A stretch of DNA of 63,533 nucleotides, counting the filler, from Folioceros fuciformis (taxonomy: Eukaryota), in the NCBI GenBank assembly GCA_049999805.1. It is 11 parts of 11 records of this genome, joined end to end, with 100 filler letters (N's around TTAATTAATTAA, not from the genome) between each part and the next. Parts side by side here need not be neighbours in the genome. Positions count along the whole stretch, not along the records: positions 17,860 to 35,672 come from JBNGIO010005123.1; 10 more parts are not named here. One strand, 5' to 3'. The position numbers and the translations under genes were made by a program. The notes beneath the pieces are model-generated. The model made no database searches. It had not been told where the DNA came from and was given only the letters and a program-made list of their open reading frames with translations. This document shows positions 17,860 through 62,701 of the stretch, piece after piece. The stretch's first letter is position 1, and every line of letters begins with the position of its first letter.

Positions 17860-19462
17860 GGGCCACGCGAAGGGCGGGGTTTCACGCACTGCATTATTTT
17901 TATGGGCAACGCTCTAACCCTAACCCTAACCCTAGCTAAGTGTGCCCGCCGGCTCTTGAGGCTCCAGCGTGATTCCTCAAATTCCACTACCCGACATGCT
18001 TGGAGAGCCGGGATGCCGAATAGAGCTGCCTTCGGAACCAGCGCTCGGAGACGCATTTCTTGCTAGTCCACCACCTCGTCTTCCAGACAGGCCTTTTTTC
18101 AGGCTGGCCTCAGAGTGACCGATGTCGGGGTTCCCCGCTTCCTTTACTGAAACCATGGAGGAGCCTGCTCTTGGAAGCTCTGTCGTGGTCGTCCTCACGG
18201 TCTACAGGATTTGTCAGAATACGGTTGCCCACGCCTTGACATTCGATTCCATTCCGAAGGAGCTGTCACTGGAGGCATTCCACTACCAATTGCAGCCACG
18301 GTATCTGTACTAGGGCTTGTGTTGACGGGGGCTCGGCGTCCTGTCCAGTCCAGTACGGTGTGGCTTCCAGCTTTGCAAGCGTGGGATGGTGCCAGTGATT
18401 CCTCATCTTGAGGAAGTGCTATTTCTCAAGGGCTGGCGGAAGGAGCTCATGACTGAAGAGAGAAAAGGCTCATCCCATTTCTACTCACTCGGGCCTTCGT
18501 AAATTTTACATTAATTTAAACTGGATAATATTTATTTTATGCAATACTATATAGTATTTTAATATTAATCATTTAATTTAGTGTATATTAAATATTCCAC
18601 AATATAGTTTAACTTTTAGAATAAGATATATTTTAAATCTAAAATAAGCATAATATTTATTTATAGTATATAAATACGGTGACTCTATGTAAATGTTGTA
18701 AATGTTATCTTCCTAAATGTTATATTTTTATAAATATTAGAGGTTTTGGTATTCCTAGTTGGAGAGTAAGGTTAAATGTTATTTTTCTATAAATGTTATA
18801 TATTACTTATTTTATGAAAATAGATACTCTCAATCACTATAGTCTAATTCAATAAATCATATTTTTAATTATATATATATAATTATATCTGCTGAAAATA
18901 ACATGGTGTCTACAATTAGGAATTGAGAAAAAAGTTTTAAAGCAAGTTAGGTCCTCTTTGAAACCGAAAAAAAAAGTAGAAATAACCCATTGTTTTTAAG
19001 TCATTTCGAAGTTCATTTCTTATTTTATTTATTATAAATTTATAATATTATTAATTATACAATATAATATTTATTATTTAATAAATAAATAAACAATAAA
19101 CAATACTGTATAATGTATAATATATTTGAAATATTATTAATAAATTTAAATATTTTATTTTAATAAATACTTAAATTCTCTAATTATTACACCTCCTATA
19201 TGTTACCTAATGCCCCATTCCCAACAGGTAACATTTAGGGAGGGTGGATTGTATTATCATTGGGATAATATTATAAATTTATTTTAAATAGATTTTGAGC
19301 TGTAATATAAATGAAAACTATGGATACCTTCTTCATGTCCAAAAATTCCTTCCTACATTATGACCAACAACGTTTTATTTCTATTATTAATTTTAATTTC
19401 AAGGACTATATCTTATAGCTTGAGAAAGAGAGATAAAATGATAGGAACACTAACCCCCTTTT

Positions 19463-19724
19463 TTAAGTCTCGTGATTACCAATAGCACCTAAAACATCAT
19501 GGTCTAAGAGGAGAAAGTAGGCTCACTCTCTTAAGTCTCGTGATTACCATTAGCACCTAAAACATTATGGTCTAAGAGGAGAAAGTAGGCTCACTCCCTT
19601 AAGTCTCGTGATTACCATTAGCACCTAAAACATTATGGTCTAAGAGGAGAAAGTAGGCTCACTCCTTTTAAGTCTCGTGATCACTAATAGTACCTAAAAC
19701 GTTATGGTCTAAGAGGAGAAAGTA
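19463..19724. repeat. 68-bp tandem repeat, about 3.8 copies
   Basis: Unit TTAAGTCTCGTGATTACCATTAGCACCTAAAACATTATGGTCTAAGAGGAGAAAGTAGGCTCACTCCC, starting at 19463, 19531, 19599 and 19668. Confidence 0.92.
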
Positions 19725-20198
19725 CCACTAGAGTTGCTAATGCAACCTGTCTTGCCAACATTTTTTGTCTTGTATATGGCATTAGCCAACACTCGCAATA
19801 GAGCAACAAAAATCATCTACCTCGAAATCCACTACTTAGAAAACCCTACAATATATGAAAGAGGAAGACTAAGCCCATTTGAGAAAGAAAGTTGCTAAAG
19901 AATCTTTTTATGGGTTTCTCAAATTCACATCTATGTGATTCATATGACTCTTTTCGCAAGAAGTTAAGAGCCTCCTGATCATGCAAAACAACAACAAACA
20001 AATTGTCCACCATATCAAAAATAGCTTCCTATTGCTTCTATGTTGAAGTAAGGCAAATTTGGGAAGGCTTGTGAACAGTGAGGAGCAACATTTCCTCTTC
20101 ACTCCTTTGTTGAGATGACTAGAGCTATTGGAAGGCTTAGAAGTTGTGAGCAGCATTTCTTGCAACCTCTATTCCTTGAGATTGATGAAAGCTATGTT

Positions 20199-20310: not shown

Positions 20311-22397
20311 GGCCGACCACAAGAGTGTTAGTGTTCTTGTTTTTCTGAAAGCCCTTTTCAACTTGTAGTTGGACAATGGCATCCACCACAAATTACTGGG
20401 CAAGTCTTCCCCTTTCTTACATAGTTGCTTTCTTGTGGTGGAAGATAGCCATGGCTTTGCACTCCTCAGCATAAGGTGTTGGTATTGGGACTTACATATT
20501 TAGTAAACGTGCTTTACCTTATGTTATTGTAGCAGTTGTGGTAGTTCGCATTTGCAATTGTAGCAGTTACCATTTCCAAACTATTTAAAAACCATCTGTA
20601 ACCTCTCTTTATATGTGTCTCTACATTCCTTGTTCACCAGCCACGGCTTGTGATCTGTTCTTAGCACTGTGCAGAAGTTCATGATTTCTTTTTGATGTTG
20701 ATCAGAGGAATGTGTTGTGGGCCAGCGTGCGGCATCATTTTTCAGGCAACATGACGAAGAAAAGAGGCCTTGCAATAGCCGCAAGATGCAACGTCAAGCC
20801 AATCTCACATGGCTGTCCTCGCTGCCCTATCTTGTTCTCAGATAGTTAGGAAGAGGAACGATTGGACCATTTCGTACCACAATCTCTGAAGATTGAGAAG
20901 GTTATCACCCTGCTCAACGACAACTGCCTCCCACGAGTGATTGTTGAAGGCTCAAAAGGCTGAGAGTTTTGACGTGATCAAACCCCAAGACGATGAGATT
21001 TGCAAGCCTTCGTCTCCAACTTTATTCACTCCAGCAATGTGTGAAGGTCCGGGTTGTTGAAGTAATAATTGGTTTAACGTGCTTCATTTACACATACATT
21101 TATACTTAGGTATAACCCTGACTAGGGTTATCCATGCACTCGACTATTTAAACATTATGTCTCTCAGATATTATTTGAATTGCTATTATGAGCAAAAGTG
21201 TCTAGTCTATTCTTAGATATTTACATGGTATCAGAGCTCTGGCGATTGCTATGAGATCTTCCGCTGTAATATTCTAATTTTTCTTTATGCAAATGTAGAA
21301 TCTAAGTAAAGAAGAATGGGTTGTCAGCCCATTTCTCTTTTACGTCACAAGAAAAGTAGGCTGGTTGACAAGCCGCTTTCACGCGGCTTGCACCAAGCAT
21401 GTTAGAACTTGCTGTTCTTATTTCCTAAATGATTTTGAGTAGTATCACTTTTCCGATCATCCTAAAATGCCTCGGAAGTCTAGAAATCAGTATTATGTAC
21501 CGTATGTTGGGGAATCAATTCCCTGTCTAGATGGGGCTAGACCCCGGATGTCAAGATCTGTCATAGAGCTGGACTGCAAGGTTAAGGGTGAAGGTGGCCT
21601 TCCTTCAGAGCCTGCACTTGCAGTTGTCACAAAAGACACCGACAGTTTGCTTGCAAGGAAAAAGGTGTTATATCTATTGAAGATTTTGACAGGCGATTGG
21701 ACGCAAGAGTGAAGATCACAGCAGCACGTTTGGTGAAGACTTCAACTCATTTAAGTGCTGGACTATACCTCATTAATGAAGCTCTTGAGGGACGCTTCAA
21801 CAGCTTTCAGCAGTGATCTCTTCTCGTACGAGAGCTACTGAAGATGCATCTTCACCCTCTGCTCGTCCACCAACTACTGCTCTCTACATGCCAATGCTGA
21901 TTCCAACTGATATCTCTCCAGAACAAGAGGATGTTGGATTAGTATCCCATTGACTCATCAACTCGAAGATCTTCACAGCTTGTTCTTTCTGCGCCAGACA
22001 TTAGAGGCAGATTCCAAGCGACGTGAGTGTTAGTGACGGTTAGTCTTATGCTCTGGAGGCAATCAGGTTTTCCCCTTCACCTTCAGCTGAAAAGGTATAG
22101 GTAGTTATTAGTTAGTTGTCATGGGATTTAAAATTAGGATTCAGAATACCTTCGAATTCAATTATGAACTTCTATTTTAACGTACATGTTCAAGTCTGGG
22201 ATGTCCTCCTCGCAGCTCTTGTTGTCATTGCTATGCTGAGATCCCCAGTAGATAGCGATAGTGACTCTGATGTAGACGTGCTCTCTTGGCTCTATTCAGC
22301 CTCCCCGTCTATATCAAGTCTTGGTGTAGGGGACACAATGGTAGGTACTCATCCCCTCCCAACTCCACCTCTATCTTATCCCCCTGTTAATGTTCAA

Positions 22398-25325: not shown

Positions 25326-25649
25326 AAGAGGCGAATGCAAGTTTGTATCAATTATAATAAGCTCATGTCAAAATCGCAACGAATTGTATCATGAACTACT
25401 CAGACGAAAACCAGGTCATCCTCATTGGCCTTAGAATTAACTACGATGTCTAACTCTCTTATCCGTTGACCATCCGCATCGCCGAAGTCGTCGCCATCCA
25501 CCTCGAGCACAAAAAAGTTCGGGTCGTCCACTGTTTAGGGGGGTATAGTTCCATTTTCATCCCATACCATGATGGCGTACAGGTCTTATACTAGCCTACC
25601 ATCACTCTGGGAGAAGACCTCACCTTTCTTCTCCAATAGACTATAAACC

Positions 25650-26883
25650 TACATTCTCCATTCAACCCGAGCTCATCATGAATATACTTGACCTATTCGA
25701 TGAACCCCATTCTTTTCCTCTTGTCCAGATAGATGTTATGGTCCACAGCTAATACCCTCATTTTCTCTTCTATAAGGCCAGCATAGACGTGGCATTCCAT
25801 CCATTCATACTTATCCTTGGTAGGAAACATCTGATGCAGTTTCTACATAGCTGCAAAACAATGGTTCCCACCAAGCACACCCATGTGATATTGTTGAGGA
25901 GTAATCTTCTCCAAAGAGACGTCCTCCTTCTTTGCCGCCTGCTTGGGGTCTATCATACATAGAAGAGGTAAGACACCTTTCTTCACAGATCCCGCTTACA
26001 TTTGTCTCACCAGACACTTCATCCAGGCTTCATCAACTTCTCTTATCCAAGCATCACAGGTTATGAACAAGGCCAGATGTCAAATGTCCACATGTTAATC
26101 AAACGTTGTTGACCGAATCCTCTTCGAATGCGCTTTCTTCCTTACAGCATTCAAATCGTTCTTATTCTGTGCCAACCTCTCCAGCCTTTCAGAGTTTTAT
26201 TCCAATGCTCAAGTGCTCTTGCTCTACAATATGTATAGTTCTCCCTTTCTTCTTCGTCTTCTGCCTACCTTCAACCAATACTATAAACACAGGTAACCTT
26301 TTCCTTTTCTTCTACGGGGATGTTGCTGCAGCACAAAGTCATTAGTGTCCACGTGAACGTACGCACTGGGTAAAAAGCTTTGGCTATCCACCAAAGGCAT
26401 CTAACAAAAGACACTAAGCAATCACTTGTTGATGATTGAAAGCTATTGCAAAGGTCTTGTGTTGTTGCTTCGCTGGGGAAGCAAAAAGCTTCCGCTGCCG
26501 CACAATTGGTGCACCGGTAGACCAGCGCACCTGCTTCACTCTCGTCTGGAGGGGTGTAATCTCCACAAGTGAATCTGGGGCATTATCTTCCTCCGCACTT
26601 GAAATTCGCCTAGCCTCCTCAACTTTGTTGAGACTATCCTCAGCCAATGAGGACTCCTCCATCTCCTTTCCTTCTTCCTCGTTGTATACTGGTACGTCTG
26701 GGGCTTTGTCTTCAGAAACCTCTGGTTGCATGCGCGGCATTTACTGCCTTTCGATCTCTAACCCTCCTTCATGTGAAACTGTTGGCGCAAATTGCGCTCG
26801 TAAGGATTGCTGCTGGCGATCTCCTACATGCATGGCCACAATTGCCCGGTTCTTCAGCATTGCGTCCCCCACACACTGCATTA
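25650..26883 (-). pseudogene. Decayed gene with an acidic N-terminal exon and a ParB/sulfiredoxin-like domain
   Basis: The minus frame through 26157-25650 reads ...WIREVDEAWMKCLVRQM*AGSVKKGVLPLLCMIDP...QYHMGVLGGNHCFAAM*KLHQMFP..YEWMECHVYAGLIEEKMRVLAVDHN...RMGFIE*V, with GGNH at 25861-25872 and about 5 in-frame stops. An upstream acidic ORF lies at 26414-26740. Confidence 0.68.
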
Positions 26884-27265
26884 TAATTCTACAGAACTAC
26901 TCGCCACCCTATGTGTCGAACACTTCATGACAAATTAGGGTTTTCATGTAAATTACGAACCTAAAATAATCAAACACAGGGACTCATTCTCCGGATGAGA
27001 AGCCTCATATGAAATGGAAGTTAAACCTCTATAGGTTGTTAGGGATGACAGATGAAGGGGGAGATTAGCACGACACGAACTGGGTACAAAAAATGGTTAA
27101 CAGGCAGACTGTTCTATAGAGAGTGGCAAGATGCAGTGGTGTTCTCTGGAACAACGTAGAAAGGATTTTTAGAATGTGGGAGAATCGCGAATTTTCGGAA
27201 CAGGTGAGCATCGCTAGTGCGGGTACGGAAAAAAGAGCCAAGGCGAAGAGGAAGGCTTGAGCTTC

Positions 27266-27415
27266 AGTGCGCCGGTCTATCAGTGCACTAAAGCTCAAGC
27301 TAGTCGGATTGCGCAAGTAGATCGGTGCACTCGTGCTCGTGGCCGTCGGAGTGCTTTGGTCTACCGGCGCACTCGAACTCAAGGCAGCTACAGTGTGCCC
27401 ATCTACCAGCGCACT
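27266..27415. repeat. Array of four 24-bp near-palindromes with an exact 42-bp period
   Basis: Consensus AGTGCGCCGGTCTACCGGCGCACT at 27266, 27308, 27350 and 27392; a fifth copy at 26508-26531. Confidence 0.85.
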
Positions 27416-27494
27416 CCCTTAAGATTTCATTTAACTGAATTTTTTCTGCACATTTATAACGTTTTTGAATATAGACTAACAGGTTCTTTTCGGA

Positions 27495-28288
27495 ATGCAG
27501 AAACTTGTAGACATTACGGACTTAAAGTCTTTACCAAAACCTTTTCAAGATTCTGTATACTCAGCTAAGAATTGGAAAAGAATGAAAGAGGAGAAACAAA
27601 AGTTGGCGGACGCAGGTATGGACACAGGGTTATTGAACTTCAGGGTACTTTCTAGTAACATAAAGGTTAAATATCAGGTTATTCAATGGAATGTTCTGGA
27701 AATGAAGGCATTTCTGGTTAAACGGCCATATACGCTATTATTTGCAGACTTGCCGTGTGACAAGCAGATGAACATCTCCAAGTTAAATGAAATTATTCGG
27801 GGGTTTAGCGAATGCACTTCTAGCACCATTTTTAGGGTTGTCCTGATGCATGGAGTTGATCTCATATTAGAAGCAAGAGAGGCCCTTCAACCATGGTGCA
27901 AGAAGGGGAGTATCCAAACTTTAATGTGGGAGAAGACAAATATACCTCCGAACGTAGGTGGAGTTGAATTGGTGGAATATTTAACTGTGGGTAGTACAGT
28001 GCATAACGATGCCCACGAGTTCAAGGCAGCACTATTTGCGAATCAAGGTTTTCTTCTGCTTGGAGTTATAAGGCATGGAGCAGTGGTGAAGAAACACCTT
28101 TTCCATTCTGGAAATGCCCTAGTCGTCTCCCCGTATCAAAAATCTTAGCATTGATGAGTATGCTCGTGAACATGTTTTCCTCGGAGGGCGATTGGGTAGT
28201 GGATGCATGTGCAAAATCTGGCACTCTTCTTCAAAGTGCCGTTCATAATGGAAGGCATGCGGTTGCAATCGATGTTGACCTCAGTTGA
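27495..28288 (+). pseudogene. Circularly permuted (beta-class) N4-cytosine/N6-adenine DNA methyltransferase-like gene, frameshifted at about 28147
   Basis: Motif IV-like YTLLFADLPC (DLPC at 27747-27758) and MWEKTN..., then PYQKS / ALMSMLVNMFSSEGDWVVDACAKSGTLLQSAVHNGRHAVAIDVD. This matches the N6_N4_Mtase C-terminal pattern (P.QKP..L...LI...S..GD.VLDPF.GSGT...A...GR..IG.D). Confidence 0.82.
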
Positions 28289-28312
28289 CTACTTACATTA
28301 TGCAGCGGGTCA

Positions 28313-28870
28313 TTGGGAGGTACTTGAAAGGGACTAGTACCTTGGGACTGCATTATACTTCCTCTGGCCGACAAGGTTTCACACTGTCCGCCTTTGCTGA
28401 TGCTGACTGCATCTGATGTTGACTCTTGGAAGAGCCTCTCAGCATATGTGTTCTTCCTTGCAAGTGGTGCTGTGAACTGGTCATGCAAGAAGCAAACGCC
28501 TTTGGCGTTGTCGTCAACTGAGGCTGAGTATAAGGCCCTGACAGACACATGCAAAGAGTTAGAGTGGGAAAGGCAGTTTTTGGATGCAGTAAATGTACCC
28601 CAGCCTGGCCCGACTACTCTCTTGTGTGACAATATGTCAGTTATCTCGCTTGTGGCCAATCCGAGGTTTCATGCGAGGACTAAGCATATTGAGTTATATC
28701 ATCACTACATTCGTGATGTGGCTGAAAGAGGGATAGTGCAAGTACAAAATGTTAGTACAAATGAGAACACAACTGATGTTTTTACTAAGGGTCTCTCAAA
28801 GGAGAAACATTACAAGCCTCTGGCGGCTTTAAGTCTAAGGGTCTTCACCATCCCTACACCCAGTGTCTAA
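28313..28870 (+). pseudogene. pol: Element Y end of RT and RNase H
   Basis: RYLKGTSTLGLHY, FADAD, WSCKKQTPLALSSTEAEY, CDNMSVI, RFHARTKHIELYHHYIRD, DVFTKGL. Confidence 0.93.
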
Positions 28871-29059
28871 CCTACCTAGTTTGATGCCACAGGGCAGGAG
28901 TATTGTCCGAGTAATAAATTCCCACTAGCTAGTCTAGGTCAGGACTGATTTCTTCTTTCCCTGCACATTGCATTTCGAAACATGGCACACTCAGTGGATG
29001 AAGCAAAAAGGTCTAGAATCAAATTGTGAGTTGTGCCACAAGTCTTACCTTTCTACTTG

Positions 29060-29461
29060 TCATGCTAATTGTTTACTGAAGGTTTTGCAAACGTAGCCAA
29101 GGGTCTCCATGTTTCTTGCCATTACCATACACTCTTCAGGAGTCATCACTCGAGATACCTTTGAGCCCATAGGCTCGTTTATCATGAGTTCCTCCAGTTC
29201 GCAAGTGCGCATCCTAGTTGTCTTGAGTAGGGACCTCAGTTCGTTGCACTTCTCCAAGGTCTTGTGCAGATGCCACAGTAGGTCTCTGTCGGCCGTAGTC
29301 AATGGTCCTGTTTTCTTTGTTCCAGGAACTGATGCTGAGGGAGCTGTGGCAGCGGCAAGCCTGATGTGGGGAGTCTCCATCCTGCTGGAAATGTTCTTGC
29401 TGACTTCCTCCATCTCCAGAGTCACTCCGCCACTCTCCTTGAGCTACTGAATTTCTTCCAT
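29060..29461 (-). CDS. Antisense accessory ORF in the element Y 3' region, one early stop; function unknown
   Basis: Contains ADRDLLWHLHKTLEKCNELRSLLKTTRMRTCELEELM, 18/37 identical by manual alignment to the antisense ORF at 60469-60747. Confidence 0.6.
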
Positions 29462-30109
29462 CGCTGCCTGCACCTAAAGCTAGAATCCCAAGCAAGACAA
29501 CTATAGTTGTTCCCCTCATAGCTGAGCTTGGTTTTTCAAGGGCATCCGCCATTACTGAAGCAGCCTAAGCGACAGTCATGAGAGGGAGTTGTTCGAGCTA
29601 AGCACTCAAGTGAAGCGTGCGTTTCTTTAAGGCTCTCTGCTGTAACCCTCACAGGTTAAGAGGGAGTGTTGAAGTAATAATTGGTTTAACCTGCTTAGGT
29701 TACACATACATTTATACTTAGGTGTAACCTGGACTAGGGTTATCCATACACTTGACTATTTAAACATTATGTCTCTCAGATATTATTTGAATTGCTATTA
29801 TTTGATCAAGCAAATGTCAAAAAGTCTTATGATTATTGATATTGATACCATCTGCACCAACTTTATGGAGAAAGACACCGCAGCCCATGGTGCTTCAAAC
29901 ACTGAGAGCGCTTCTCATTAAGAGAAGGCACAACTCAAGCTTATGCAAGATGTCTCAGACTCGGAGTCAGAGAATGAAGTGTATAACCTTTCATTTCTGT
30001 TTGAGCCTGTAGATTATTCCTTGTGGGATTTTTCTCCTGAAGCCCTCTTGCATAGAGCTAGTCAGTTGAACATCAACCTTGTAATTCCTGGAACCATCGG
30101 AACATTTAC

Positions 30110-34204: not shown

Positions 34205-35672
34205 ACTTTTTTATTCTAGATTATCCCTAAGTGGGAGCGATGTGAGGGTGATGATGTACTCCTTTCTTGTTTCTTCTATTTGTCCTTCACCCCATCTTTG
34301 CTTTGAGGTTTTTCTACAAGCTTTTTATCATCCGAGTTAGGGGGGAGTTGAGTCCCCATAAACCTAGTCAAGTCTGCAAAGGAAGGTAGAAAGCCCATAC
34401 CTTTTGGTTCTCCAGGGAAGACTTTATAAAAGTCCTCTCTTTTAGCGACATAGAGCTTCCTTGGTATTCCCTCTGCATCCAAGTTCTGTTCCTTCCTAGC
34501 AGTTCTAGCTTGAGGAGTTTCTGTGAAGCTAGTAGACCTCACAGGTGCTTCAAAGGCAACAATGATAGGAGCCTTACTATGCATAGCATGGAGATGGGAG
34601 GAGCGTTCAAAAAATCTCCTCATAGGAACCTAGATTCTTGCACACCCAAGACACCGGAGACCACGTTGGAGCTGGGAGTCCATGACAATGAAGATAGGAG
34701 AGATGGCTACTGCGAACAGGCTTGTTACTTTATGGGAGCTGGAGGAGTTGAGGAGCATAAGTTCAAGATCATGAAGATGCTTTCACGCTTTCCTTAGCAT
34801 ATGCAGTACATGGACTCGTGTCTTGTTGCACATGTAGTATTAAATCCAAGCATATGGAATGAAACCCCTTATGCTTCAGGTTTTGAATGCCACCACTACT
34901 ACCTTGATAGTACATTCATGTACCAAATGCTCACTAAGTGGGAGTATTGGGATTTGCATGTTTAGTAAACGTGCTTTACCTCATATTACTATAGCAGTTG
35001 TGGTAGTTCGCATTTGCAGTTGTAGTTGTTACCATTTTGAGACTATTTAAGAACCATCTCTAACCTCTCTTTACATGTGTCTGTGCATTCCTTGTTCGCC
35101 AGCCACGGCCTGTCATCCGTTCTTAGCACTATGCAGAAGCTCCTGATTTCTTTAGATTTCTTTAGTTGGTTGATGCGGAGTATAAGAGGTCAGCGAGCTA
35201 AGGAGAAGTAGCGGCTTGTTTGACTGGAGTAGGTAGGCCCTTTCATATTCCTGACCATGAAATTGTATGGGCGCCATTGGTAATTTGAAGAGGCTCGGGA
35301 GGACCGTGGGCCAGTCCCCGCCTTTGGTGCCCTTGAGGTTGATTCTTTCCGTCTTTCCGGGACGGGTGGTTTCCATCGTTTTTTTTATAATAAAGTTTTT
35401 ATATCTCTCGCTCGTATGATTGTAATAAATCAATCTATGTTGCAGCATTTTTGTGGGAATAATGAGTGTACGTATGGCAAGGCGGGGATGCATGTGAGGC
35501 GGAGAGCAACAAATATTTAGATATTGCCGTTATCCGGAATTGACAGAGCGGGCCAACGGGTTGGCAGGCCCACAGCTCTACATTTGCACTGGGGTAGCGC
35601 GCTGCGGGCTGGGCAGGTTTAGAGTGGGTGCCGTGTTCCGGACACTCCAGGCCTATACGGCCCGGCCGCACT

Positions 35673-44066: not shown

Positions 44067-44585
44067 AAAATTTGGAGCCGGATCTGAACAGGTGCGCTGT
44101 GGGGAGTATCTTTCCAGGCAATTTCACTGTGAGGATCTCAAGCGCTGGGCATGTCAGACCTGCCTCCTTGCTACATCACCATCTCAGCACACCTGCTTCA
44201 GAAACCCATCGGTTCAGTGTTAGTTGCACCTTTTAAGGTCAGCTGAAGCTCAACCGTCATTTTTTTTTAGCGTTTCATTTAAGGCCCTTTTTTTTGTTTG
44301 GTTACTAACCTGTTGGGTGGCAGATGTTCCTCTCGTTAGAGTATGTCTGCAGAATAGGTTAGTGACTTCGAGTCATCCTCCCATGATAGTGAGGATTCTC
44401 CACTTCCAAATTCCCCTGCACGTTCAGCGAATAGTCTTTTGTTTGTTAGTAGCTTTGAACCTGTATAGGAAGAAGGCATAGCAGACTATATTAGGGACTA
44501 TTTAAATAGCCTAATCTCACGGCCTTTTGGCTATAATCCTAATCGTCAAGACCAGCAACTTAATCAGCAGATACCCATTATCAAT

Positions 44586-47500
44586 ATGACTTCCTCTACT
44601 GCACAAGTGTCAACCTCTGTTGGAATTACGTATTCTAGTGACTTCAAGGAGAAGGACCGGTTTGGTGGTCAAGCTAGCAGATTCGAGAGCTGGCGGGCCC
44701 GGATGAAAGCTTTTCTTGACGCCAAAGACCTATGGGAATATGTGGATGGTACCCTCACAACACCTGATATCACTCAAGCAGGTATCACTCAAACAGATGT
44801 AGATAAGTGGGTGAAAGGCAACAAGGTGGCTTTTGCGATCCTTCTTTCTGGACTAGACGAAACAACGGTAACAGAGGTGGAGTCCTTACCAACTGCTGCT
44901 GACGTCTGGACCCAACTGAAGGACACCTACCAAGTACAGAATATTCTCACACTTGTGGCTGCTCGCAACGAGTTCTTTGGCCTGAAACTTTGTGATGGAG
45001 ATGATGTCGGACCTCATGTGGTCAAGTTCAGAGACTTGAGGTCACAGCTGACTGCTCTGGGGAGCACTATGTCGGAGGTGGATGCTGTTGCTCAACTTCT
45101 ATCCAGCCTACCTGCAAGCTTCCAGAATTTCATCTCTAGTCAGAATGCGGCCTTACAGGCTTCGTACGTTGCTATTGCTGCAAAGAAACCACCTACTGTT
45201 ACCTTCAACAGCGTGGTTGGTGCTCTCCTACAAGAGGAGCAGAGCCGACAGAAACCAAGGACTTCCTCTCGCGTCCGTGGGGAGAAAGTGCTCTTTGCTG
45301 CAAAAGGCAAAAACACCGGACAGGGTAAGCAGAAAGGCAGGAAGAGTTCTAACTCATCTCCTTCCCACACCTCGCCCAGCACCAAGCGGCAGGGGAACTG
45401 CAATTGGTGTCAAATACAAGGTCACTGGGAATGTGACTGTCGGAAGAAGAAAGCAGGGGAACCCAAGAAGGATCCGAGATCTGAGGCCCATGTGACTTCC
45501 AAAGACAGCAAAAGTTCTGGACCACCTAAGAGTAGCAGCACAGTTCTTATTGTGTGCCTCTCCTCCTCCAAAGAGCCTTCTTCAACCTGGTTTGTTGATT
45601 CTGGTGCGACTGCTCACGTGTGCAACAACAAGGAGCTTTTCTCCACCTTCCACAAGATGAGGGGGAAAACACCAGAGTTAGTGTATGTAGGAGATTCTCG
45701 TGGAGTGGAGGTAAAGGGCAGTGGGATAGTTAAGATACCTTTGGCAGCCGGCAAGTCTTTGCATCTGCATGATGTTTTGTATGTTCCCACGATGTCTAAG
45801 AACTTGCTGTCGGTTAGAGTTGTAGCTCATAATCAGCATTTAGCTTTTCGCTTTGAGGATAGAAAGTGCTATCTGTATCACCCTTTTGATCCTGACACAT
45901 ATGTGGCGAAAGCAGTCCTTGTTACCGACTTGTACCAGTTAGTCACAACAGCAAAAGTTCATGCTAGGGCACTTACGTCTACGCACCATGCTCAGGCTAA
46001 CCTTTGGCATGCTAGACTGGGACACGTCAACAAGGCAAAGCTGGATTTCATGTCTACCTCCGATTGCTATAGAGAAAGGCTCCCGTCTTGTTTTAAACAT
46101 CTTGCTCCCTGCAGTTCTTGCATTCTGTCAAAACAGAAGGAGCTTTCGTTTAAGAACAAGAATCCAACACGTGCTAGAGCAGTACTGGAGCTAATCCATG
46201 CAGATATTGTTGGCAAATTACCTGAGAAGTCACTTGGCGGTGCTGAGTATTATCTTACCCTCACCGATGACTACTCGAGGTATACGTGGACGTTCCCTCT
46301 GAAATTGAAGAGTGAAGTCTTCGACACAATTGCTGCCTGGATCCCTATGGTGCAACGTCAAATAGGCTGCCTAGTCAAGTGTTTCAGAACTGACAATGGA
46401 GGGGATTTCACAGGCCACAAGTATGATGATCTGTTTGAATAGTTTGGTATTGTAAGACAACTCTCTATTCCCTATACTCAACAGTAGAATGGTGTGGCTG
46501 AGAGGAAAAACCAGACACTTATGGGCATGACAAGGAGCATGTTGTCGTGGGCTGGTATATCAAAATAGTTCTGGGTAGAGGCAATAGTGACTGCTACCTA
46601 CATTCTCAACAGAGTGGTTACCTCTGCTTTGCCTGGACGGACTCCCTATGAGGCCTTTTGGGGCAGAAAACCCTGTCTGTTACACTTGCGAGTCTTTGGA
46701 TCACCTGCTTTTGCGTATGTTCCAGAAGCAAAACGCAACAAGTTAGATAGCAGGTCTGTCCCTCTTATTTTCCTAGGCTACTCTGAGGAATCAAAGGCCT
46801 TTAAACTTTATGATAAAGTCACTTCAAAGATTGTTCTTGCTAGGAGTGTGATTGTTAGTGAACTTACCCAATCTCCAGCACTCCCTGAGCATGACCTTCT
46901 AGATGGGCAGATCTTAGATCCCACTTCAACTACTCCTTCTCAAGCTGAAAGGTCAGGAACCCCAATTTTTGAAATTGCACCTCATCAATATCCTCAGTCA
47001 AATGGGGAAGGACCTACTGCAGAAGATATGGGTGCAGCTGACGAGCAGCATCTAAATGGAGTTGGCCAGCAACCTGAGGACGATCCTCCACCAGCAGCTG
47101 ATGATGAGATACCTCCTGCACATGCTGTGGGGGAATTTGCAGAGGATCAGGCTTCCTTACATGAATTCGAAGATGTGATCTCTTTGTCTAGTGTTGAAGA
47201 TGATGCACAATCTGCTCTTTCTGAGGAGCCTGAGCCTGGACCACAACCAGCACCACCTGTGGATCAACAACCTCGTTATAATTTCAAGGAACGGAGATCT
47301 CGAGATCAGTGGTTTGAACCCCCTTACCAATCTTTGGATTTTCATAGGCCCTCTGTTCAGGTTTCTGATCTTCATGTACCCGATGTCAGACTTGACCCAC
47401 AGTCATATGATGAGGCTGTTAACGGACCTGATGGTGACAAATGGAGAATCTCCATCGAGGATGAGTATCAATCTCTTATCGGAAACGGCACATGGGAGCT

Positions 47501-48969
47501 AGTTGATCTTCCACCTGGCAGAAAACCAATCAGTTGTAAATGGGTTTTTAAAACAAAACTTAAGGCTGATGGTACAGTAGCCAGGTATAAGTCCAAACTA
47601 GTTGCTCGAGGCTTCAGTCAGATTCCAGGCATAGACTACGGGGACACCTTCTCACCTGTTGTCAAACCACCCTCTGTTCGCATTCTCCTTGCTTTGGCAG
47701 CCGAGTTTGACTTGGAAGTCCAGCAAATGGATGTTTGTACTACATTTCTCCATGGTGAGCTTGAAGAGACGCTGTACATGGAACAACCTGAGGGGTATAT
47801 CGATAAAAAAATGGGTTAAAAAGGTCTGCAAGTTACTTAAGACTATGTATGGCCTCAAACAGTCCCCTAGAGCCTGGTACAAGAGAATAATGAAGTACCT
47901 TAAGAAGCTAGGGTTTCTTCAGTCTCCTGCTGACGGCAATATCTTTCTTCTCATTGTTGGAGCACTCTTTGTTATCTTGGCACTCTATGTGGATGACTAT
48001 GTCCTGCTTAGCAATAGCACAGAACTGTTAGCCAAGGTTAAAGACATGCTTCGACAAGAATTTGAAATGACTGATCAAGGGGATTTGCAGTTTTGCTTGG
48101 GTATACAAATCCTTCGCAATAGGTCAACTGGCACTATTACCTTACATCAGACGAAATACCTTAACGAGATTTTGAAGCGATTTAATCTTCAGGATGCTCG
48201 CCATATAGCCACTCCCTTGGCAGTGGGGGAAAAGCTGATCTGTGCATAGTCTCCACAAACACAGCGTGAGATTGAAGACATGAGCAATGTACCTTATGCC
48301 AAGGCAGTGGGTTGTCTGATCTTCCTTGCAAACTGGACTTGCCCCGATATTAGTTATTCAGTGAGCATGGCGTCCCAGTTTCTCCGACAACCTGGCAGGG
48401 CACACTAGGCTGCCGTTAAAAGGATTTATCGGTACCTCAAAGGCACCATCAACTATGGGCTGCAATATTCAGCCAGTGGGAATAGCTGTATGGTACTTAC
48501 CTCCTTCGCAGACGCCGATTGGGCTTCTGATGCCGACACCAGAAAGAGTCTCTCGGCTTACTGTTTTCTGCTATCTTCTAGAGCTGTGAGTTGGGGCTGC
48601 AAGAAGCAGTCTTCTCTAGCTCTTTCTTCCTCAGACGCTGAATACAAGGCCTTGATTGATGCTTGTAAGGAGGCGGAATGGCAGAGGCAGTTCCTGGAGT
48701 CTGTACAGCAGCCATAGAAGGAGCCCACTATGTTATACTGCGATAATATGAGCGCAATAGCTCTTGTGGCAAACCCTAGGTTTCACGCCCGAACTAACTA
48801 TATTGAGCTATATCACCACTACATAAGGGATGTGGCTGAGCGAGGGGTCGTGAAGGTAGAGTATGTTAGCACACATGATAACACTGCAGATATCTTTACC
48901 AAGGGTCTGTCCAAAGTCAAGCATTTCCAGCATCTCGCAGCCCTAGGTCTACGTGAGTTTGTGCTTTAA
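44586..48969 (+). pseudogene. pol: Element Z gag-protease-integrase-RT-RNase H polyprotein, with about 6 TAG stops and one frameshift near 47810
   Basis: Knuckle CNWCQIQGHWECDC, WFVDSGATAH, LWHARLGH..CSSC, IHADIVG, RTDNGGDF, QMDVCTTFLHG, LYVDD, ADADWASD, RFHARTNYIE. Confidence 0.96.
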
Positions 48970-51388
48970 CTAGTAGTCTGCAGGCAATTGTCTGAGCAGG
49001 AATTGAAATGGGACTAGCTCTAGCCTGTCTACTGATGCTTATCATGTGCACACTTCACAGCTGAACCTGGTGTGCAGGGTTCTTCAGTCTTCAACCTTTG
49101 CCTTCCCACCATGGCCGGGGCTCAAAGCCTTCCTGTTCAGATTTCCACTCAAGCCTTCTGTCAGTGTAGTTGTCACTTAGCTCAGTGGAGGAAGCTCTAT
49201 TTCTGATCAAACCGTGAGTAGGTGACAGTAATGCTAAACCAGAACATACATACCTCATACAGTTTCTTCCCGCAGAGGGGGCATAACTTGCTTCTGTAGG
49301 CACATACGCTACAGTCCCGTGTTTCCTTCTCAGCTCCACTCTTCTCCTAAGCTATAGGCTTACTCTGGGCAGCAGCTTTTGCGATTAACTTCAGCCTGCT
49401 GCCTAGCCACTTCTTCGGGCTTCAGGTCAACCAGCTTCTCAACCTCTGCCAGCGTGGCCATAGCTGTCTTCATATACTCTGACAATTCCTGAGTTTTGGA
49501 AGACACAGGGTGTGGCTCACTCAGGCGTAAGGGTTGGCTGTCCACCTCGTCCTCCTCGTCAGTGCTGATTGGGGACAGGGTCGATAGTTGTGACACTGGC
49601 GACTGAAGGGCTCAAGGACTTTGACGATTCAAGCTCCACCACAGGGATCTGGTTGATGAATCCAGGGCGCAGGGTAGGCAGGGGTACGTCCTCGGAGGGA
49701 TTCACGTCAGGAGCTTGGATAGTTTCCCTGACTGGTGATCTCCCTCGTGAGGGACGATTCCTCCGCTGGCTGATCCTCTTCATCTTCTTGGGCTTTGTGT
49801 TGTGGCTGCATCCTCCGTCTTCACCGAGCTGAACCCCAGACCAAGTCTTCATCTTATGCAGTGTTGTGGCTCTCCCACACAGGAAGCAAGCGTAGCGTAT
49901 GAAGGCAAGGATCTGGAGTTCCATGAGAGCGGGGGTAATGAGTAGATTAGCTGAGGCGTAATGTCTGGGCTGTGGGTAGTACTCAATGGGAATCGCTGTT
50001 TTTTAAACCAGTTAGGTTTAAGAGGGGGTGTTGAGGGTTATGTTTAACCCTACCTGGTTTAGGTTACCAGGGTTTATACAACCCTAACTCAAGAGACACA
50101 ATTTTGTTCTTATATACTCTTGTTTAACATTAATTGTATTGTATCATTTTACAAATATCAGCTTCCGCTAGTTTAATAGGCCCTGAGAGTGAAGGTGGCT
50201 GGCAATGCAAGCCATTGAGACGCGCAAGAGGTGCAGCAGCGTAGGCGGCATAGGAAGTAGCAACAGGCGCCACAGGCACAAGAGCGTGTGAGAGGCGCGA
50301 GAGGGAGAGAGACTCAGGAGGAGCAGCAACTACTGGAGGCAACCAGGCCGTGGAAGCCATAGCAAGCCTAGGATTTGCGAGGAGGAAGGCCTGAACTTGG
50401 TAAACAGTGTTCTGATTTTTTTTAATTTTTGAAAGCTTGAGCAAAGGCTGTTTTTGCTTAATGAAGAGTCAGCTGCACATTCCTCACCACAGGGAGGAAA
50501 TAATTGTGGTGGGTGGATTTTAAAAGACGAAGGATAATACTTTTATTACATAATCTCTTGTGATTCTTCTTTCACTCGTACTCTCGGCGTTGTGTCATAA
50601 CGTATCATCGGCTTACGCTTTGGTTTAAAATCCACAAAAGATGTCAAGCGCTTCTACCTCTGAGTCGGGGCTTCTTGGGTCTCCAAGGCTAGGATCAAGA
50701 CCCCCATCACCACCCACACCACCTCTAGGTGGGCAAACCATCAACCCACCACCTTTTGGTGGCCAAGTAGGCAACCCACCGCCTCCACCCCAAGTTGGTA
50801 TCCCCCCACTTCAACCTTACTTCAACATCGTTAGTATCAATACAGACATGTCTTCAAGGAAAAGGATAGATTTAACGGTACGAAGTTTGAGGTGTGGTCA
50901 AAGCGCATGAAGACTATGCTCAACACTCGAGATCTTCTCCCCATTGTGGAGGGAACCATTGCCAAGCCCTCCGCTAATCCAGCTGCCATTGATGCTTGGG
51001 TTCGTCAAGATTGATAGGCTATGCAAATGTTGATCTCTGGCCTCGACAAGGTTACCTTACATCACACTGATGGTGCGTCCACATCTGTTGAAGCTTGGAA
51101 GCAAATCACTGACATCTATCAGTCCACGAATGTGATGACGCTGGTCACGGTACGCCTGGAATTCTATTCTTTGTGCATGGGCCCCAATGACAGCGTTGCT
51201 CAGCACGTTAGCAAGTTTCGATATTTGCGAGCCCAGCTTGCTGCTCTTGGGACAACCATCACCAAATTTGAAGCTACTGTTCAGTTATTGGCTAGCCTCC
51301 TGGCTAGCTACCAGACATTTGTCTCCTCTCAAAACCAAACGGTGAGAAATGCACATCAGGTTGTGCAGTTGGGTATGGTTCCCAACAT

Positions 51389-54966: not shown

Positions 54967-55066
54967 NNNNNNNNNNNNNNNNNNNNNNNNNNNNNNNNNN
55001 NNNNNNNNNNTTAATTAATTAANNNNNNNNNNNNNNNNNNNNNNNNNNNNNNNNNNNNNNNNNNNN
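54967..55066. other. Artificial contig spacer
   Basis: N44-TTAATTAATTAA-N44. Confidence 0.99.
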
Positions 55067-55067
55067 A

Positions 55068-57020
55068 CGTCCAGCTGTTAGGGCCCTGTATGAAGAGATT
55101 CGGGCGTGGTTCGGCAATGAGCTGATCATGGACGCGGTGCAGTGTGGCTCATATGCACACAGGCTTCGCAGTTACTGGACAAATGTGGCTGGACTGGAGG
55201 TGCTCAGACAGCACAGGAATTTGACAACTCCGAAGCGGAAGGTTGTGGATGATATCCTAGAGTTGGGAAGGTGCTCACAACAAGTGAAGAGGATGGACAA
55301 GTTGCCATTTTACCCTGTGAATCGAGTAGGGGAATCCAGAAGGGCATGGCCAACTCTGGTGAGCACACCGCAATCTTATGCCTTCAGACCAGGAGGAGAT
55401 GGTGTGATTCTGGATTTGAAAGGGAATGAGCTTGGAGAGCTCAATGTTGAGGAACGCGAGCAAGCGATGGGCTTTGCCAAGAAGGACACTCAGACCATGG
55501 GCATCACAGAATCTGCAAGGTGCAGGATGCTCGGACAGGCATTTGACTTGTACAGTCTAAGGTGGCTGGTAAGCACAGGCTTGGCGTTCCAACTTGCAGA
55601 AGCCGAAGGGAAGCGAAGGCCTTTCCTCCAACTACTGCAGGATAAAGAGGTTCCTAAGGCAGAGGAAGACGAGCTGCTACTGTTAGAAGGAGAACTCGTG
55701 AGGAAAGTACCAAGTCATGAGGAAAGAGTGGGCATAGTGACCAAGGTGCACGAAACCCTTGGCCACTTTGGTGTGAAGAGGACACACCACATGCTGAAAA
55801 GCACGTATTTCTGGTCAGGGATGTATGCAGATGTCGAGAAGGTGGTTGCTAAGTGTGCTGCATGTGATGCAGTCAAAGCCCGATTTAACACCCAGGATGT
55901 GGTGTTGCACTCCCTACCAATCAGGGGGCTATTCTTTAGATGGTCGGTTGACCTTATGCCAGAGCTTCCCCTCACAAAGCAAGGTAACCGACATTGCATG
56001 GTCATGATTGAGCATTTCTCTAAGTGGGTTGAAGTAGCGTTCTTGCCACAGAGAACTTCACACTACACTAGCAGAGCGTTTCTGCAGTGTGTGCTCAGCC
56101 GATTTGGGAGCTGCGCGGAAGTGCTCACAGACCAGGGTAACGAGTTTCGAGGTGAATTCCAGACCTTGCTCGACAGGAGTCTCATTGATCACAGGAGGAC
56201 ATCGAGGGATCATCCACAGGCCGATGGCCTGGCAGAAAGGCTAGTGCAGACCTTCAAGGATGCACTAAGGAAATACTGCATTACTGTGGAGCCCAAGTGT
56301 TGGGATGAATTGCTCCCTTACATCGTGTTGGGGTACAGGGTCAGTGTGCAGGCAACTCTTGGAAGTTTCAGTCCATACTTTTTGTTATTCGGACGCAACG
56401 CAGTGTTGCCGAATGTGGTGAAGGACACCTACTCCATCCCTGTTGACTGGAGCAAAGATGCAAATGTGTGCTTGGCACAGGTTCAAGCCAGAGCAGAAGT
56501 ATTTCAAAGAATTCTTCCCATGGCTATGGATAATTTGGCTGTGGCCCAGCATCGGGACCAGCTGAGGTATGCTTATACGCGGGGGGGCTCGTGGAAGCCC
56601 AAAGGCCGCAAGTTTGCATCTGGAGATTACGTGTACTTGCAGCGCAGGCCTGCAAGCACGTTAGCTGTCAGCACAGGAAGGCTTATCCTGCGAGTTGTCC
56701 AGGTTGGTGAGCAAGGTGTGGTTGAACTTGAAGGAAGAGATGGCAGAAGGTGCAAGGAACACATGAAGCACTTGGCTCCATGCCATTTGCCTGATCTGGA
56801 TACACGAACTGTGCCTCAGACCTGGACGCCACCAGCAGATTTGCCCTGTGAGGAGTGTGGACACACAACTGACGACGAATTCATGTTGCTATGTGACAGG
56901 TGTAACCGTGGTTACCATCTGTTTTGCCTCAAACCGGCACTGGACAGTGTTCCAGAAGAAGAATGGCTATGTGAGCACTGTAATGTGCTAAAGTGTGAAC
57001 GTGGCTCTTACAGAAGGTGA
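55068..57020 (+). CDS. Ty3/gypsy pol C-terminus: DNMT3-like C5 DNA methyltransferase (motifs VII-X), integrase and PHD finger; 5'-truncated by contig edge
   Basis: The frame is open from 55068. DNMT part (~55068-55570): MDAVQCGSYAHRLRSYWTN and EEREQAMGF..DT..ESARCRMLGQAF. Integrase: HHCC (VHETLGHFG..CAAC) and DDE (WSVDL, LTDQGNEF, GLAERL). PHD C4-H-C3 at 56847-56981. Confidence 0.9.
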   Translation, partial: RPAVRALYEEIRAWFGNELIMDAVQCGSYAHRLRSYWTNVAGLEVLRQHRNLTTPKRKVVDDILELGRCSQQVKRMDKLPFYPVNRVGESRRAWPTLVSTPQSYAFRPGGDGVILDLKGNELGELNVEEREQAMGFAKKDTQTMGITESARCRMLGQAFDLYSLRWLVSTGLAFQLAEAEGKRRPFLQLLQDKEVPKAEEDELLLLEGELVRKVPSHEERVGIVTKVHETLGHFGVKRTHHMLKSTYFWSGMYADVEKVVAKCAACDAVKARFNTQDVVLHSLPIRGLFFRWSVDLMPELPLTKQGNRHCMVMIEHFSKWVEVAFLPQRTSHYTSRAFLQCVLSRFGSCAEVLTDQGNEFRGEFQTLLDRSLIDHRRTSRDHPQADGLAERLVQTFKDALRKYCITVEPKCWDELLPYIVLGYRVSVQATLGSFSPYFLLFGRNAVLPNVVKDTYSIPVDWSKDANVCLAQVQARAEVFQRILPMAMDNLAVAQHRDQLRYAYTRGGSWKPKGRKFASGDYVYLQRRPASTLAVSTGRLILRVVQVGEQGVVELEGRDGRRCKEHMKHLAPCHLPDLDTRTVPQTWTPPADLPCEECGHTTDDEFMLLCDRCNRGYHLFCLKPALDSVPEEEWLCEHCNVLKCERGSYRR

Positions 57021-60166: not shown

Positions 60167-60468
60167 TCTCCTAACAAAAGGACTACCAAAGATCAAACAT
60201 TATAAACATAGTGCAGCATGTGGGCTGCGTGCATTTACAGTCACTAGAAAAACTGTCTAAGACCTGTGTTGTAAGCTCAGCAGTGAGATCACACAAAAAA
60301 AGGAGAAGGAGAACTAGGAGCCTACAAGTGCTAAGCCAGACTTTCTACTTAGTTAAAGCCTGATTAGTGTTGTCGGAGGAAAGAAACAAAAAAAAAAAAA
60401 CAATGAACTTGGAAAGGAAAAACGTAGAGGACAGCAGGTGTTGGTGGTTTTTTTTTGAACTCCCAGTT

Positions 60469-60747
60469 TCATGCTGGAGTTGCACCCTCACAGGATTCAG
60501 TTCCTGTTGCATCTTTTATGTCCCTCATGAGATCTATGAGCTCCAAGACACGCAGCCTGGCTGATTTGAGGAGGTTCTCAATTTCCTCACACTTCTGCGA
60601 GGTTTGGAGCAAGTGAACAATCTGGTTTCGGTCCGCCTGCGCCGGCCACCACTTCTCACTTGATGCTTCAGTGCTGATGGTCTCCTCACACTCTTTCTCC
60701 ACAACGGGCTGGCCTTGGTGCCTCTTTTTCTGCTTAGTTCGCGCCAT
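60469..60747 (-). CDS. Antisense accessory ORF of a copia 3' region, 92 aa, starting MARTKQ
   Basis: ATG 60747 in ccATGG context after ctgcag. It shares a 37-aa block with the ORF at 29183-29293 and lies upstream of a plus-strand PPT and LTR. Confidence 0.6.
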   Translation of the reverse strand: MARTKQKKRHQGQPVVEKECEETISTEASSEKWWPAQADRNQIVHLLQTSQKCEEIENLLKSARLRVLELIDLMRDIKDATGTESCEGATPA

Positions 60748-61349
60748 GGAAGCCCTGCAGGTGCTCAGCCTGAACGTGATGAGATGGTGAGCGTGAACCA
60801 ACAGCACTCCTCGAGACCTGCCAAGACCGAAAGCAAAGGTGATCAGATCGAGAGCAGAGCAAGAATGAGGATGGGGTCAGCCTGCGTCGTTCCTCAATCT
60901 CTGGATGGCTGGGTTGTGAACCTTCTGGCATTTCATCAGCTCGCGCTGAACCAGCAGGGTCCTGCTGCCCCGCGCTTGCAAGGCAACAGGACAAGTCTCG
61001 CGCCAGATTGCTGGACGGGCGCCTCGCGGCGGCATCGCGATGTCCTGTAGAGGACTCGCGGATCACAAGCTGGCTTCGTGCTCTGTGTGTTATGTACCGC
61101 GCGTGTGTTCTCGTCGTGGGCCGTTCTCGTGTAGCAGCCGCGCGTGTGCGAATCGCCGTGGGGATTTCGTGAGTTGGTTTTCGCATTTGCAAGTTTATGC
61201 GGCTTTAATTTCCCGCTGCACGTTCTCTGGGGGTTTTCTATTCCGTTCCGTTGCGTGACACCGTTCCGTTACGAAGTTTTCCTGGTGGTTAAGTTTTTTT
61301 TTTTACTTTTAACCTGAGAGGGATTCTACCTTTAACCTAAGAGTAAGTT

Positions 61350-61515
61350 AAGTGGGAGTGTTAATAATAAGGGGTTATTTTAGTATAACCTACCTTAGGG
61401 TTAATTAACCATAGTTATGAAAAGATACTTTGTATATAATACCTTTTTTTGGTTGAGTTTAATTAATTGTCATTTTTATGCAACTTGTGCACTAGCATCT
61501 TTTCTTCTAGCACCA
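61350..61515 (+). mobile_element. Copia PPT and short 3' LTR (from 61359)
   Basis: AAGTGGGAG then TGTTAATAATAAGGGG...; right end approximate (TAGCA 61512 or CAACA 61518). Confidence 0.7.
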
Positions 61516-62243: not shown

Positions 62244-62701
62244 TGAGGTGGGCCGGAATAAAAGATGTTTCCTGGTGCTCCCTGAAATCAGGCGGGGAAC
62301 TCGACTCCCAAGGAGATTTCAGCCTCAACACAACAAAAAACCTTGCGTCGAATGGTTCAGATGGCGAGGAAGAAGTGAACAGCTGGTCATTAAATTGTAC
62401 GATGAAGGAGAAACCACTGGTCAGTCTCATGCAGCGAGTGATTCGATATTTTGTTGAAGCTTCATCCACTCGATGCATCATGGCTAGCCAGTTTTTGCTG
62501 TCACTTGATTGGGTACTAATTGTATTCATCTCCCTCTGCCCCAGGAGAAGATAAAAGGAGAGAGGACCATAAAATATGAGGAGGGGTCGCAGCATCAAGT
62601 TACCAAGTCAGCACCTTTCAAATAATTGTTTCCCTGTTTGCACTCCCTCAGCACCTCTGTACTCCCCGTAATTGGTGCCTAAGGGAAGAGATACAATCAA
62701 A

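Follow-up and report, generated by a model that had tools for sequence, protein, structure and literature searches.

The stretch of DNA analysed here (the window) spans 63,533 bases of the Folioceros fuciformis assembly GCA_049999805.1 and consists of 11 contigs with N spacers between them; it is not a single locus. Long terminal repeat (LTR) retrotransposons are abundant across it, and two of them, the Ty1/copia elements Y and E2, carry an open reading frame (ORF) that runs antisense to pol and lies between the pol stop codon and the polypurine tract (PPT) that precedes the 3' LTR. On sequence comparison, a block within these ORFs is demonstrably homologous between the two elements, with matching position and orientation, and its substitutions bear the mark of purifying selection on the antisense frame, at a rate close to that of the pol C-terminus, as gauged from this single pair. 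The observation is real; its interpretation as an accessory gene is plausible and under-sampled. We regard the chances as evenly balanced that the ORF is a coding, element-borne accessory gene, namely, an antisense ORF (aORF) situated between pol and the 3' LTR.

In Y, the ORF occupies 29060-29413 on the minus strand (ATG at 29413, TGA at 29060-29062) and specifies 117 amino acids (aa), among them ADRDLLWHLHKTLEKCNELRSLLKTTRMRTCELEELM. The E2 ORF, at 60469-60747 on the minus strand, specifies 92 aa that include ADRNQIVHLLQTSQKCEEIENLLKSARLRVLELIDLM. From stop to stop, the lengths are 127 codons in Y and 135 in E2. A first-pass annotation of the window had placed the Y ORF at 29060-29461. Its stop end stands; its start gives way to the intact one at 29413, since the in-frame ATG at 29459-29461 is followed after five codons (MEEIQ) by an in-frame TAG at 29444-29446, so that this leading piece (29444-29461, minus strand) is broken. 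The same annotation read a tgcag/g...ATGG context before both ATGs as acceptor-like. Literally the context is there, as cctgcag/ggcttccATGG at the E2 ATG and as aggtgcag/gcagcgATGG just upstream in Y, at the broken ATG; as a splice acceptor, it is a low-information motif.

The claim that the two antisense peptides are 18/37 identical without gaps was borne out by direct comparison; the corresponding DNA is identical at 67/111 nucleotides (nt). BLASTP extends the match to 54 positions (22 identities, 34 positives, one 2-residue gap, E 1e-10). The conserved block so defined by BLASTP and tblastn covers residues 41-92 of Y (29138-29293, minus strand; gapless 37-residue core at 29183-29293) and residues 38-91 of E2 (60475-60636, minus strand; gapless core at 60526-60636). 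Past the pol stop, it lies at 313-423 nt in Y and at 268-378 nt in E2. In a tblastn search of the whole window, each ORF recovers itself and its counterpart alone (E 2e-7 and 8e-8), the next best match having an E of at least 0.75. The remainder of the two pol-PPT spacers is unalignable, and the spacer upstream of the antisense ORF is 243 nt long in Y and 601 nt in E2. That E2 is a copia end on another contig, and that its ORF is antisense, was confirmed from its pol C-terminus and its PPT/LTR junction. Its LTR differs from that of Y. The pol sequences of Y and E2 are about as diverged as the antisense block.

The match is better explained by conservation at the protein level than by nucleotide identity, as far as the sequences allow. 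When five pol-PPT spacers of the window were compared by tblastx, the sole cross-element match with E<0.01 paired Y with E2 in the antisense frame (E 2e-8; 48.6% identity over 37 aa); other frames at the block gave E 0.024 and 0.033. A blastn comparison (word size 7) of the same five spacers found no match at the block, and only the PPT junction, over 16-17 nt. Scored by BLOSUM62 without gaps, the block reaches 88 in the ORF frame as against 38, 27, 40, 35, and 10 in the other five; over all tests, the ranges are 88-92 for the ORF frame and 10-47 for the rest. Shuffles that preserve the identity between the sequences, either by shuffling columns or by mutating Y at an equal number of random sites, reach the observed score in 2/20000 and 3/20000 trials, respectively. 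When they are also allowed to choose the best segment and the best of the six frames, they reach it in 1/5000 and 2/5000. The ratio of nonsynonymous to synonymous rates (dN/dS) in the block is about 0.23-0.35 for the ORF frame, whereas four of the others have 0.6-2.0. Conservation of the block (49% at the aa level and 60% at the nt level) is similar to that of the last 30 pol codons, where 16/30 residues (53%) and 52/90 nt (58%) agree. The first-pass annotation would have been undone by a match that nucleotide identity alone could explain; the tblastx and blastn results show that it does not.

These results bear on the possibility that the block is a non-coding island of residual homology, a slower stretch of an ancestral spacer whose open frames and aa score arose by chance. 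We think this unlikely. It would have to account for 60% nt identity that escapes blastn and still gives a strong tblastx match in one frame, for shuffles with free choice of frame and segment that so rarely attain the score, for the low scores of the other five frames, and for the lack of any alignment in the rest of both spacers. What speaks for it is that the frame and the block were selected for matching, that there are two copies only, with no homologue in the searches described below, and that the ORF lengths and the codon-position pattern, taken up among the points against a gene, are unremarkable.

The conserved part is predicted to be an amphipathic helix of about 40 residues in both proteins. 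AlphaFold2, given two-sequence alignments, models residues 1-39 of Y as disordered, followed by a helix at 40-79 (predicted local distance difference test score, pLDDT, ~96-98) and, beyond a loop, by another helix at 92-116. In E2 it models residues 1-36 as disordered and a helix at 37-80 (pLDDT 93-99). The first helix is thus common to both, and the proposal of a helical protein in the first-pass annotation agrees with the long helix predicted over the block. The residues in common follow the pattern ADRxxxxHLxxTxxKCxExxxLLKxxRxRxxELxxLM, in which hydrophobic positions recur 3-4 apart across the first half. The N-terminus of E2 is basic (MARTKQKKRH), that of Y far less so.

If the ORF is a gene, the picture would be as follows. 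Y and E2 are diverged Ty1/copia elements of a poorly sampled clade, with LTRs of about 170 bp and spacers of 0.7-1.1 kb. The antisense gene in the spacer, of 92-117 codons as present, would encode, or would until recently have encoded, a small protein whose N-terminal part is variable, disordered, and in part basic, and which has a single conserved amphipathic helix of ~40 residues. Its transcription could start from a promoter in the upstream spacer or in the very short 3' LTR. The helix might bind a partner protein or nucleic acid and so modulate the expression or replication of the element. Such a role has been proposed, and is unproven, for gene23 of Grande, with the HBZ protein of human T-cell leukaemia virus (HTLV) brought in for comparison (PMC7264820, PMC11963269). 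The suggestions of the first-pass annotation that the protein is expressed antisense from the 3' LTR and that its transcript is spliced are not supported by the present analysis.

A number of observations, gathered in this and the next three paragraphs, weigh against a coding gene. All the statistics above come from one pairwise comparison of 37-54 codons. The length of the ORFs is within what chance would give, since dinucleotide shuffles of the spacers reach it in 69/1000 cases for Y and 171/1000 for E2. The differences between the two blocks fall at the three codon positions 16/9/19 times over 37 codons, a periodicity that is not significant (chi-square ~3.6, 2 degrees of freedom). The conservation is confined to a single helix; the N-termini, the C-termini, and the start contexts differ, and E2 lacks the second helix of Y. 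Y is itself a dead copy, its gag-pol being degenerate with frameshifts and a 3-kb foreign insert. At the level of families and folds, hmmscan of Pfam-A, with E values up to 1 admitted, assigned Y to no family and E2 to two sub-threshold, unrelated ones. A sequence search of the PDB gave nothing below E 0.069, its weak matches being to CARD domains (E 0.069-0.53), and Foldseek against the PDB and BFVD gave nothing below E 4.

The pol-strand frame that shares wobble positions with the ORF has a dN/dS of 0.31 over the block, which is equally low. The strand of pol could thus be the coding one, the DNA holding the remnant of a sense extra ORF or of a pol extension and the antisense ORF being its shadow. 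In Y, a pol-strand frame at 29097-29450 is indeed open for 117 codons over the same DNA, and the nearest polyprotein in the database, P0006, runs on for about 220 residues beyond RNase H. Measured against the antisense frame, the pol-strand frame does poorly: it scores 35 on BLOSUM62 as against 88, agrees at 14/38 residues, attains a tblastx E of 0.024 as against 2e-8, and has a stop codon inside the E2 block. Moreover, its translation is rich in Ser and Leu, as the complement of a helix-coding frame would be. P0006 is 1763 aa long, and its tail, open in the pol frame over those last ~220 residues, matches none of the window spacers (best E 0.087). We consider coding by the pol strand very unlikely. 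Packaging, dimerisation, or priming signals can also sit in the 3' untranslated part of the element RNA, which is where the block lies, and apart from the PPT no other island is conserved. A nucleic-acid element acting in cis in the genomic RNA or complementary DNA (for packaging, dimerisation, or plus-strand priming) would nevertheless leave the frame-specific pattern unexplained, and the conservation is at the aa and not at the nt level. RNA folding of the block is also unremarkable, neither strand showing excess folding energy in Y or in E2 (z -0.83 to +0.23). Such an element is the least probable of the explanations considered.

The search for further copies of the block in the window was largely negative. 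Seven copia pol 3' ends were found by tblastn with a copia RNase H query, and an eighth 3' end, E52, whose pol is off the contig, was recognised from its PPT/LTR junction. The block is present in two of these eight and absent or undetectable in the other six, including the full-length element E48, so that the conservation claimed for the copia lineage as a whole is not supported. No credible match to the block was found in E9, E54, X, or E52. A hidden Markov model (HMM) of the block, run over the 1538 ORFs of the window, gave a best non-self E of 0.085 at an unrelated place, followed by E 0.33 in E48. The latter hit is an antisense stop-to-stop ORF of 83 aa (49363-49611, minus strand), in the 1052-nt spacer of E48, with no ATG before the block; it might be a degenerate relative. 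Although it is colinear and in the right place, we rejected it as a third copy, since the match lacks significance (hhalign E 0.054 at 1% probability, BLASTP against E2 E 2.7) and its HMM score is at noise level, 7654 unrelated ORFs having given a best E of 0.65. In pol, E48 is nearer to Y than E2 is, yet it has no clear block, which points to loss, rapid divergence, or an exchange of spacers between lineages. Element E62 has, past pol and on the pol strand, a 121-codon open frame (62245-62607, minus strand) that contains NTISTQSSDSKNWLAMMHR. This peptide resembles ETISTEASSEKWWPAQADR of the E2 antisense ORF at 9/19 positions (single-comparison E 0.006). It is in the opposite orientation, the helix is unmatched, and Y has no match, and the resemblance is probably due to chance after many comparisons.

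Outside the window, no homologue was found in any of the collections searched. The 7654 ORFs just mentioned come from 80 metagenomic copia loci (37-50% identical in RNase H and taken with the pol alignment), and in these the block HMM and phmmer gave nothing better than E 0.65. A word-indexed protein search with Y returned six candidates, none of which scored. With E2, phmmer against 1.84 billion representatives returned three matches, all to internally repetitive proteins matched in 4-5 stretches and judged spurious. The ESM Atlas yielded no relative, and contig searches for the ORF gave 181 pattern matches in metagenomes, 111 in viral contigs, and 66 in prokaryote genomes, none of which was confirmed. 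We estimate that, at the distance between Y and E2 (40 bits), a relative would receive an E of ~20 in a large library, so these blanks exclude close relatives only.

The patchy distribution among relatives, with the block in Y and E2 and undetectable in E48, could also mean that a fragment of a host gene was transduced in reverse orientation, its low dN/dS dating from selection in the host before capture or from recombination between elements. Gene capture by LTR retrotransposons is documented (PMC7264820), and a methyltransferase-like fragment sits in another, 3-kb foreign insert of Y. Even so, Y and E2 carry the block in one and the same orientation and almost equally far from the pol stop, between flanks that are otherwise unalignable. 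This points to a single ancestral acquisition and a long divergence since, over which a functionless fragment would drift to a dN/dS near 1. No cellular homologue was found either, in searches too insensitive for relatives at the Y-E2 distance. A captured fragment therefore seems to us quite improbable.

A hint in favor of a coding ORF comes from variation among copies in the same organism. Same-organism DNA contigs contain diverged copies of the Y region, ~83-91% alike, several of which span the ORF with at most one gap; one, for instance, aligns over 29084-29447 with 34 differences and is free of gaps. Among the 12 indels listed out of 39 is a 1-nt deletion at 29083, eight codons from the ORF stop. 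Among the 40 differences listed out of 475, those in the ORF that are backed by runs X1 and X2 are synonymous in 2/2 cases, as against 2/6 in RNase H. Variants private to a further DNA run of the same sample, X3, were set aside. Over 28300-29900, that run has C>T and G>A at 157/218 of its differing places, as a bisulfite or enzymatically converted library would give.

The copia nature of these elements is clear. Y has LTRs that start with TG; a primer-binding site (PBS) follows the 5' one and a PPT precedes the 3' one. Its LTRs are 171 bp long, with the 5' copy at 21055-21225 and the 3' copy from 29667, and are 93% alike over 135 nt. The PBS, TGGTATCAGAGC, stands at 21226-21237 directly after the 5' LTR, and we take it to be a match to tRNA-Met. 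The last open stretch of Y pol, the C-terminus of RNase H, was located at 28328-28870 (plus strand; stop at 28868-28870) from the ORF list and by tblastn with another copia RNase H and P0006. It is followed by the 786-nt spacer (28871-29656), which is bounded by the pol stop and the junction motif at 29657. The PPT TAAGAGGGAG and the 3' LTR, which opens with TGTTGAAG at 29667, follow on the plus strand (29657-29801, from the junction motif and the LTR match). A PBS of the tRNA-Met type in a copia element is consistent with PMC6317226. E2 is represented by the last 30 pol codons (C-terminus LLTKGLPKIKHYKHSAACGLRAFTVTRKTV) with a TAA stop (60168-60260, plus strand), at the start of a 1977-nt contig (60167-62143), which holds nothing more of its pol. 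The PPT/3' LTR junction of E2, TAAGTGGGAG followed by TGTT, is at 61349-61362 on the plus strand, and the spacer in between (60261-61348) is 1088 nt long.

E48 is a related full-length element. Pfam recognises in it Retrotran_gag_2, Pol_BBD, gag_pre-integrs, and rve at 44469-46442 and SH3_retrovirus and RVT_2 at 46569-47819, with RNase H after these. Its order is that of Ty1/copia (gag, protease, integrase, reverse transcriptase (RT), RNase H), a protease-like barrel being in the place of the protease, and Y is colinear with the copia polyprotein P0006. RNase H identity to Y is 71% in E48, 57% in E62, and 44% in E9. Among 5.8 billion database clusters, the nearest polyprotein is P0006 with only 37% identity, so that this copia clade is poorly sampled. 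The PPT/LTR junction motif TAAGWGGGRGTGTT occurs at five sites in the window, where 0.06 would be expected. In the form TAAG(A/T)GGG(A/G)G followed by TGTT, the junction is common to five copia elements (29657, 34935, 50019, 52667, and 61349; X with one mismatch), and wherever LTR pairs are visible the LTRs are ~160-170 bp long.

A long pol-PPT spacer is a real peculiarity of these elements. It measures 786 nt in Y, 1088 nt in E2, 730 nt in X, and 1052 nt in E48. The same junction could be located in 11/80 of the metagenomic copia loci, where it lies 14-312 nt past the pol stop, and by this yardstick spacers of 730-1088 nt are unusual. This agrees with PMC6317226, according to which the polyprotein nearly fills the internal region of elements that lack extra ORFs.

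Y is nested inside the outer copia element X. When Y pol is mapped on P0006, ~134 codons between RT and RNase H are found to be replaced by ~3.1 kb of foreign DNA (25330-28408). This insert has two overlapping plus-strand ORFs, at 27480-28148 and 28007-28288. The second matches the C-terminal, S-adenosylmethionine-binding part of Pfam N6_N4_Mtase with E 5.5e-6, just above the cut-off; a DNA-methyltransferase-like fragment, if that is what it is, would be unusual inside a copia element. For the first, a database search found no relative. Upstream of the nested elements, at 19458-19730, are four tandem units of 68 nt that are 81-94% alike. The spacer of X (34205-34934, 730 nt) has overlapping ORFs on opposite strands, 34276-34629 (minus, 117 codons) and 34390-34797 (plus, 135 codons). 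The longest ORF of this spacer is matched in length in 8/1000 shuffles, and the X spacer ORFs have no similarity to the Y or E2 ORF or to any Pfam family. Elsewhere in the window, a gypsy-type integrase ORF at 55023-57020 (plus strand; Integrase_H2C2 and rve) ends in a PHD finger (PF00628, E 7.5e-11). The finger stands where chromoviruses carry a chromodomain, and could serve for targeting.

Antisense ORFs between pol and the 3' LTR have been described in Grande, RIRE2, Retand, and PvRetro13, all of them Ty3/gypsy elements (PMC7264820, PMC4093653, PMC11963269). In common bean, 15 families have such ORFs, including PvRetro13 (PMC4093653). In Grande, a promoter inside the element, immediately upstream of the antisense ORF, and a nuclear localisation are reported (PMC7264820). 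These gypsy ORFs are conserved between families at about the level of the element proteins and have no known function (PMC7264820, PMC11963269, PMC4093653). The ORFs of Y and E2 fall within the positional definition of this class, which is called aORF-3R or eORF-3'R (eORF, extra ORF). Like Grande gene23, RIRE2, Retand TRP28 (PF04195), and PvRetro13 ORF2, they lie antisense between pol and the PPT in an enlarged spacer. The scale is different, the gypsy aORF-3R of the Tat/Retand clade having spacers of 2.9-6.6 kb and ~200-900 codons, as against 0.8-1.1 kb and 92-117 codons in the copia elements Y and E2. The class is further described as present in most copies of a family with element-like conservation. 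In this respect, the aa identity of the Y-E2 block (49%) comes close to that of pol (53%), and two of the eight 3' ends of the window have it. Pfam gives the Y and E2 ORFs no match to TRP28 (PF04195), SMC, or any other family.

Among copia elements, the closest comparison is with the extra ORFs surveyed by Neumann et al. (2019). They sorted eORFs into the classes 5'F, 5'R, 3'F, and 3'R, which are heterogeneous and mostly without known domains (PMC6317226). Counting ORFs from 250 codons upwards, their survey found extra ones in 582 elements, and the characteristic copia case is the sense ORF of SIRE (PMC6317226). Y and E2 share with these copia cases an extra ORF downstream of pol. The env-like eORF-3'F of SIRE is, however, in the sense orientation, and the Y/E2 frame is antisense and so not of the SIRE type. 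With 117 and 92 codons from the ATG, or 127 and 135 from stop to stop, the Y and E2 ORFs are far below 250 codons and would have escaped that listing.

Other systems are like Y and E2 in some respects. HBZ of HTLV-1 and APH-2 of HTLV-2 are small minus-strand proteins encoded near the 3' LTR, with a basic or disordered part and a helix; the resemblance is mentioned in PMC11963269 and PMC7264820. Pfam at E up to 1 finds no basic leucine zipper in the Y and E2 proteins, and the sequence and fold searches found no similarity, so that the likeness is one of analogy only. The antisense RNAs of Ty1, micropia, and the antisense promoters of AtRE1 and Mdoryco1-1 also represent antisense activity within LTR retrotransposons (PMC7264820). 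Those act, or are thought to act, as RNA, whereas the evidence from Y and E2 is one of aa constraint. In the literature searched, to which subscription papers and the supplementary tables of PMC6317226 did not belong, no conserved antisense ORF was found in a Ty1/copia element. The first-pass annotation had called the protein possibly undescribed. This holds for the protein family, for which no relative was found, but the kind is known, Ty3/gypsy elements having antisense ORFs in that position. We would class the Y/E2 ORF, supported by two copies, as a short form of the known antisense class that is borne by copia elements and has a single helix.

A wider reading, which we put forward only tentatively and hold less likely than the accessory gene itself, is that Y and E2 represent a new family of single-helix antisense proteins from a Ty1/copia clade that branches deeply and has barely been sampled. 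The gene would be the first cross-family antisense accessory gene in the Pseudoviridae, with an origin independent of the gypsy and retroviral ones, and it might serve the element in controlling its own transcription, RNA fate, or silencing.

To our knowledge, antisense genes between pol and the 3' LTR recur in Ty3/gypsy elements and deltaretroviruses, and none has a proven role in a retrotransposon. Should the signal fade as more copies are added, it would be a warning that two sequences compared over 40 codons can give a false impression of selection. If the accessory gene is real, high cut-offs on ORF length, such as the 250 codons of the largest plant survey, would overlook genes of this kind, and the gene would be small enough for simple functional tests. 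The short, single-helix copia version would then represent an independent origin of the same design.

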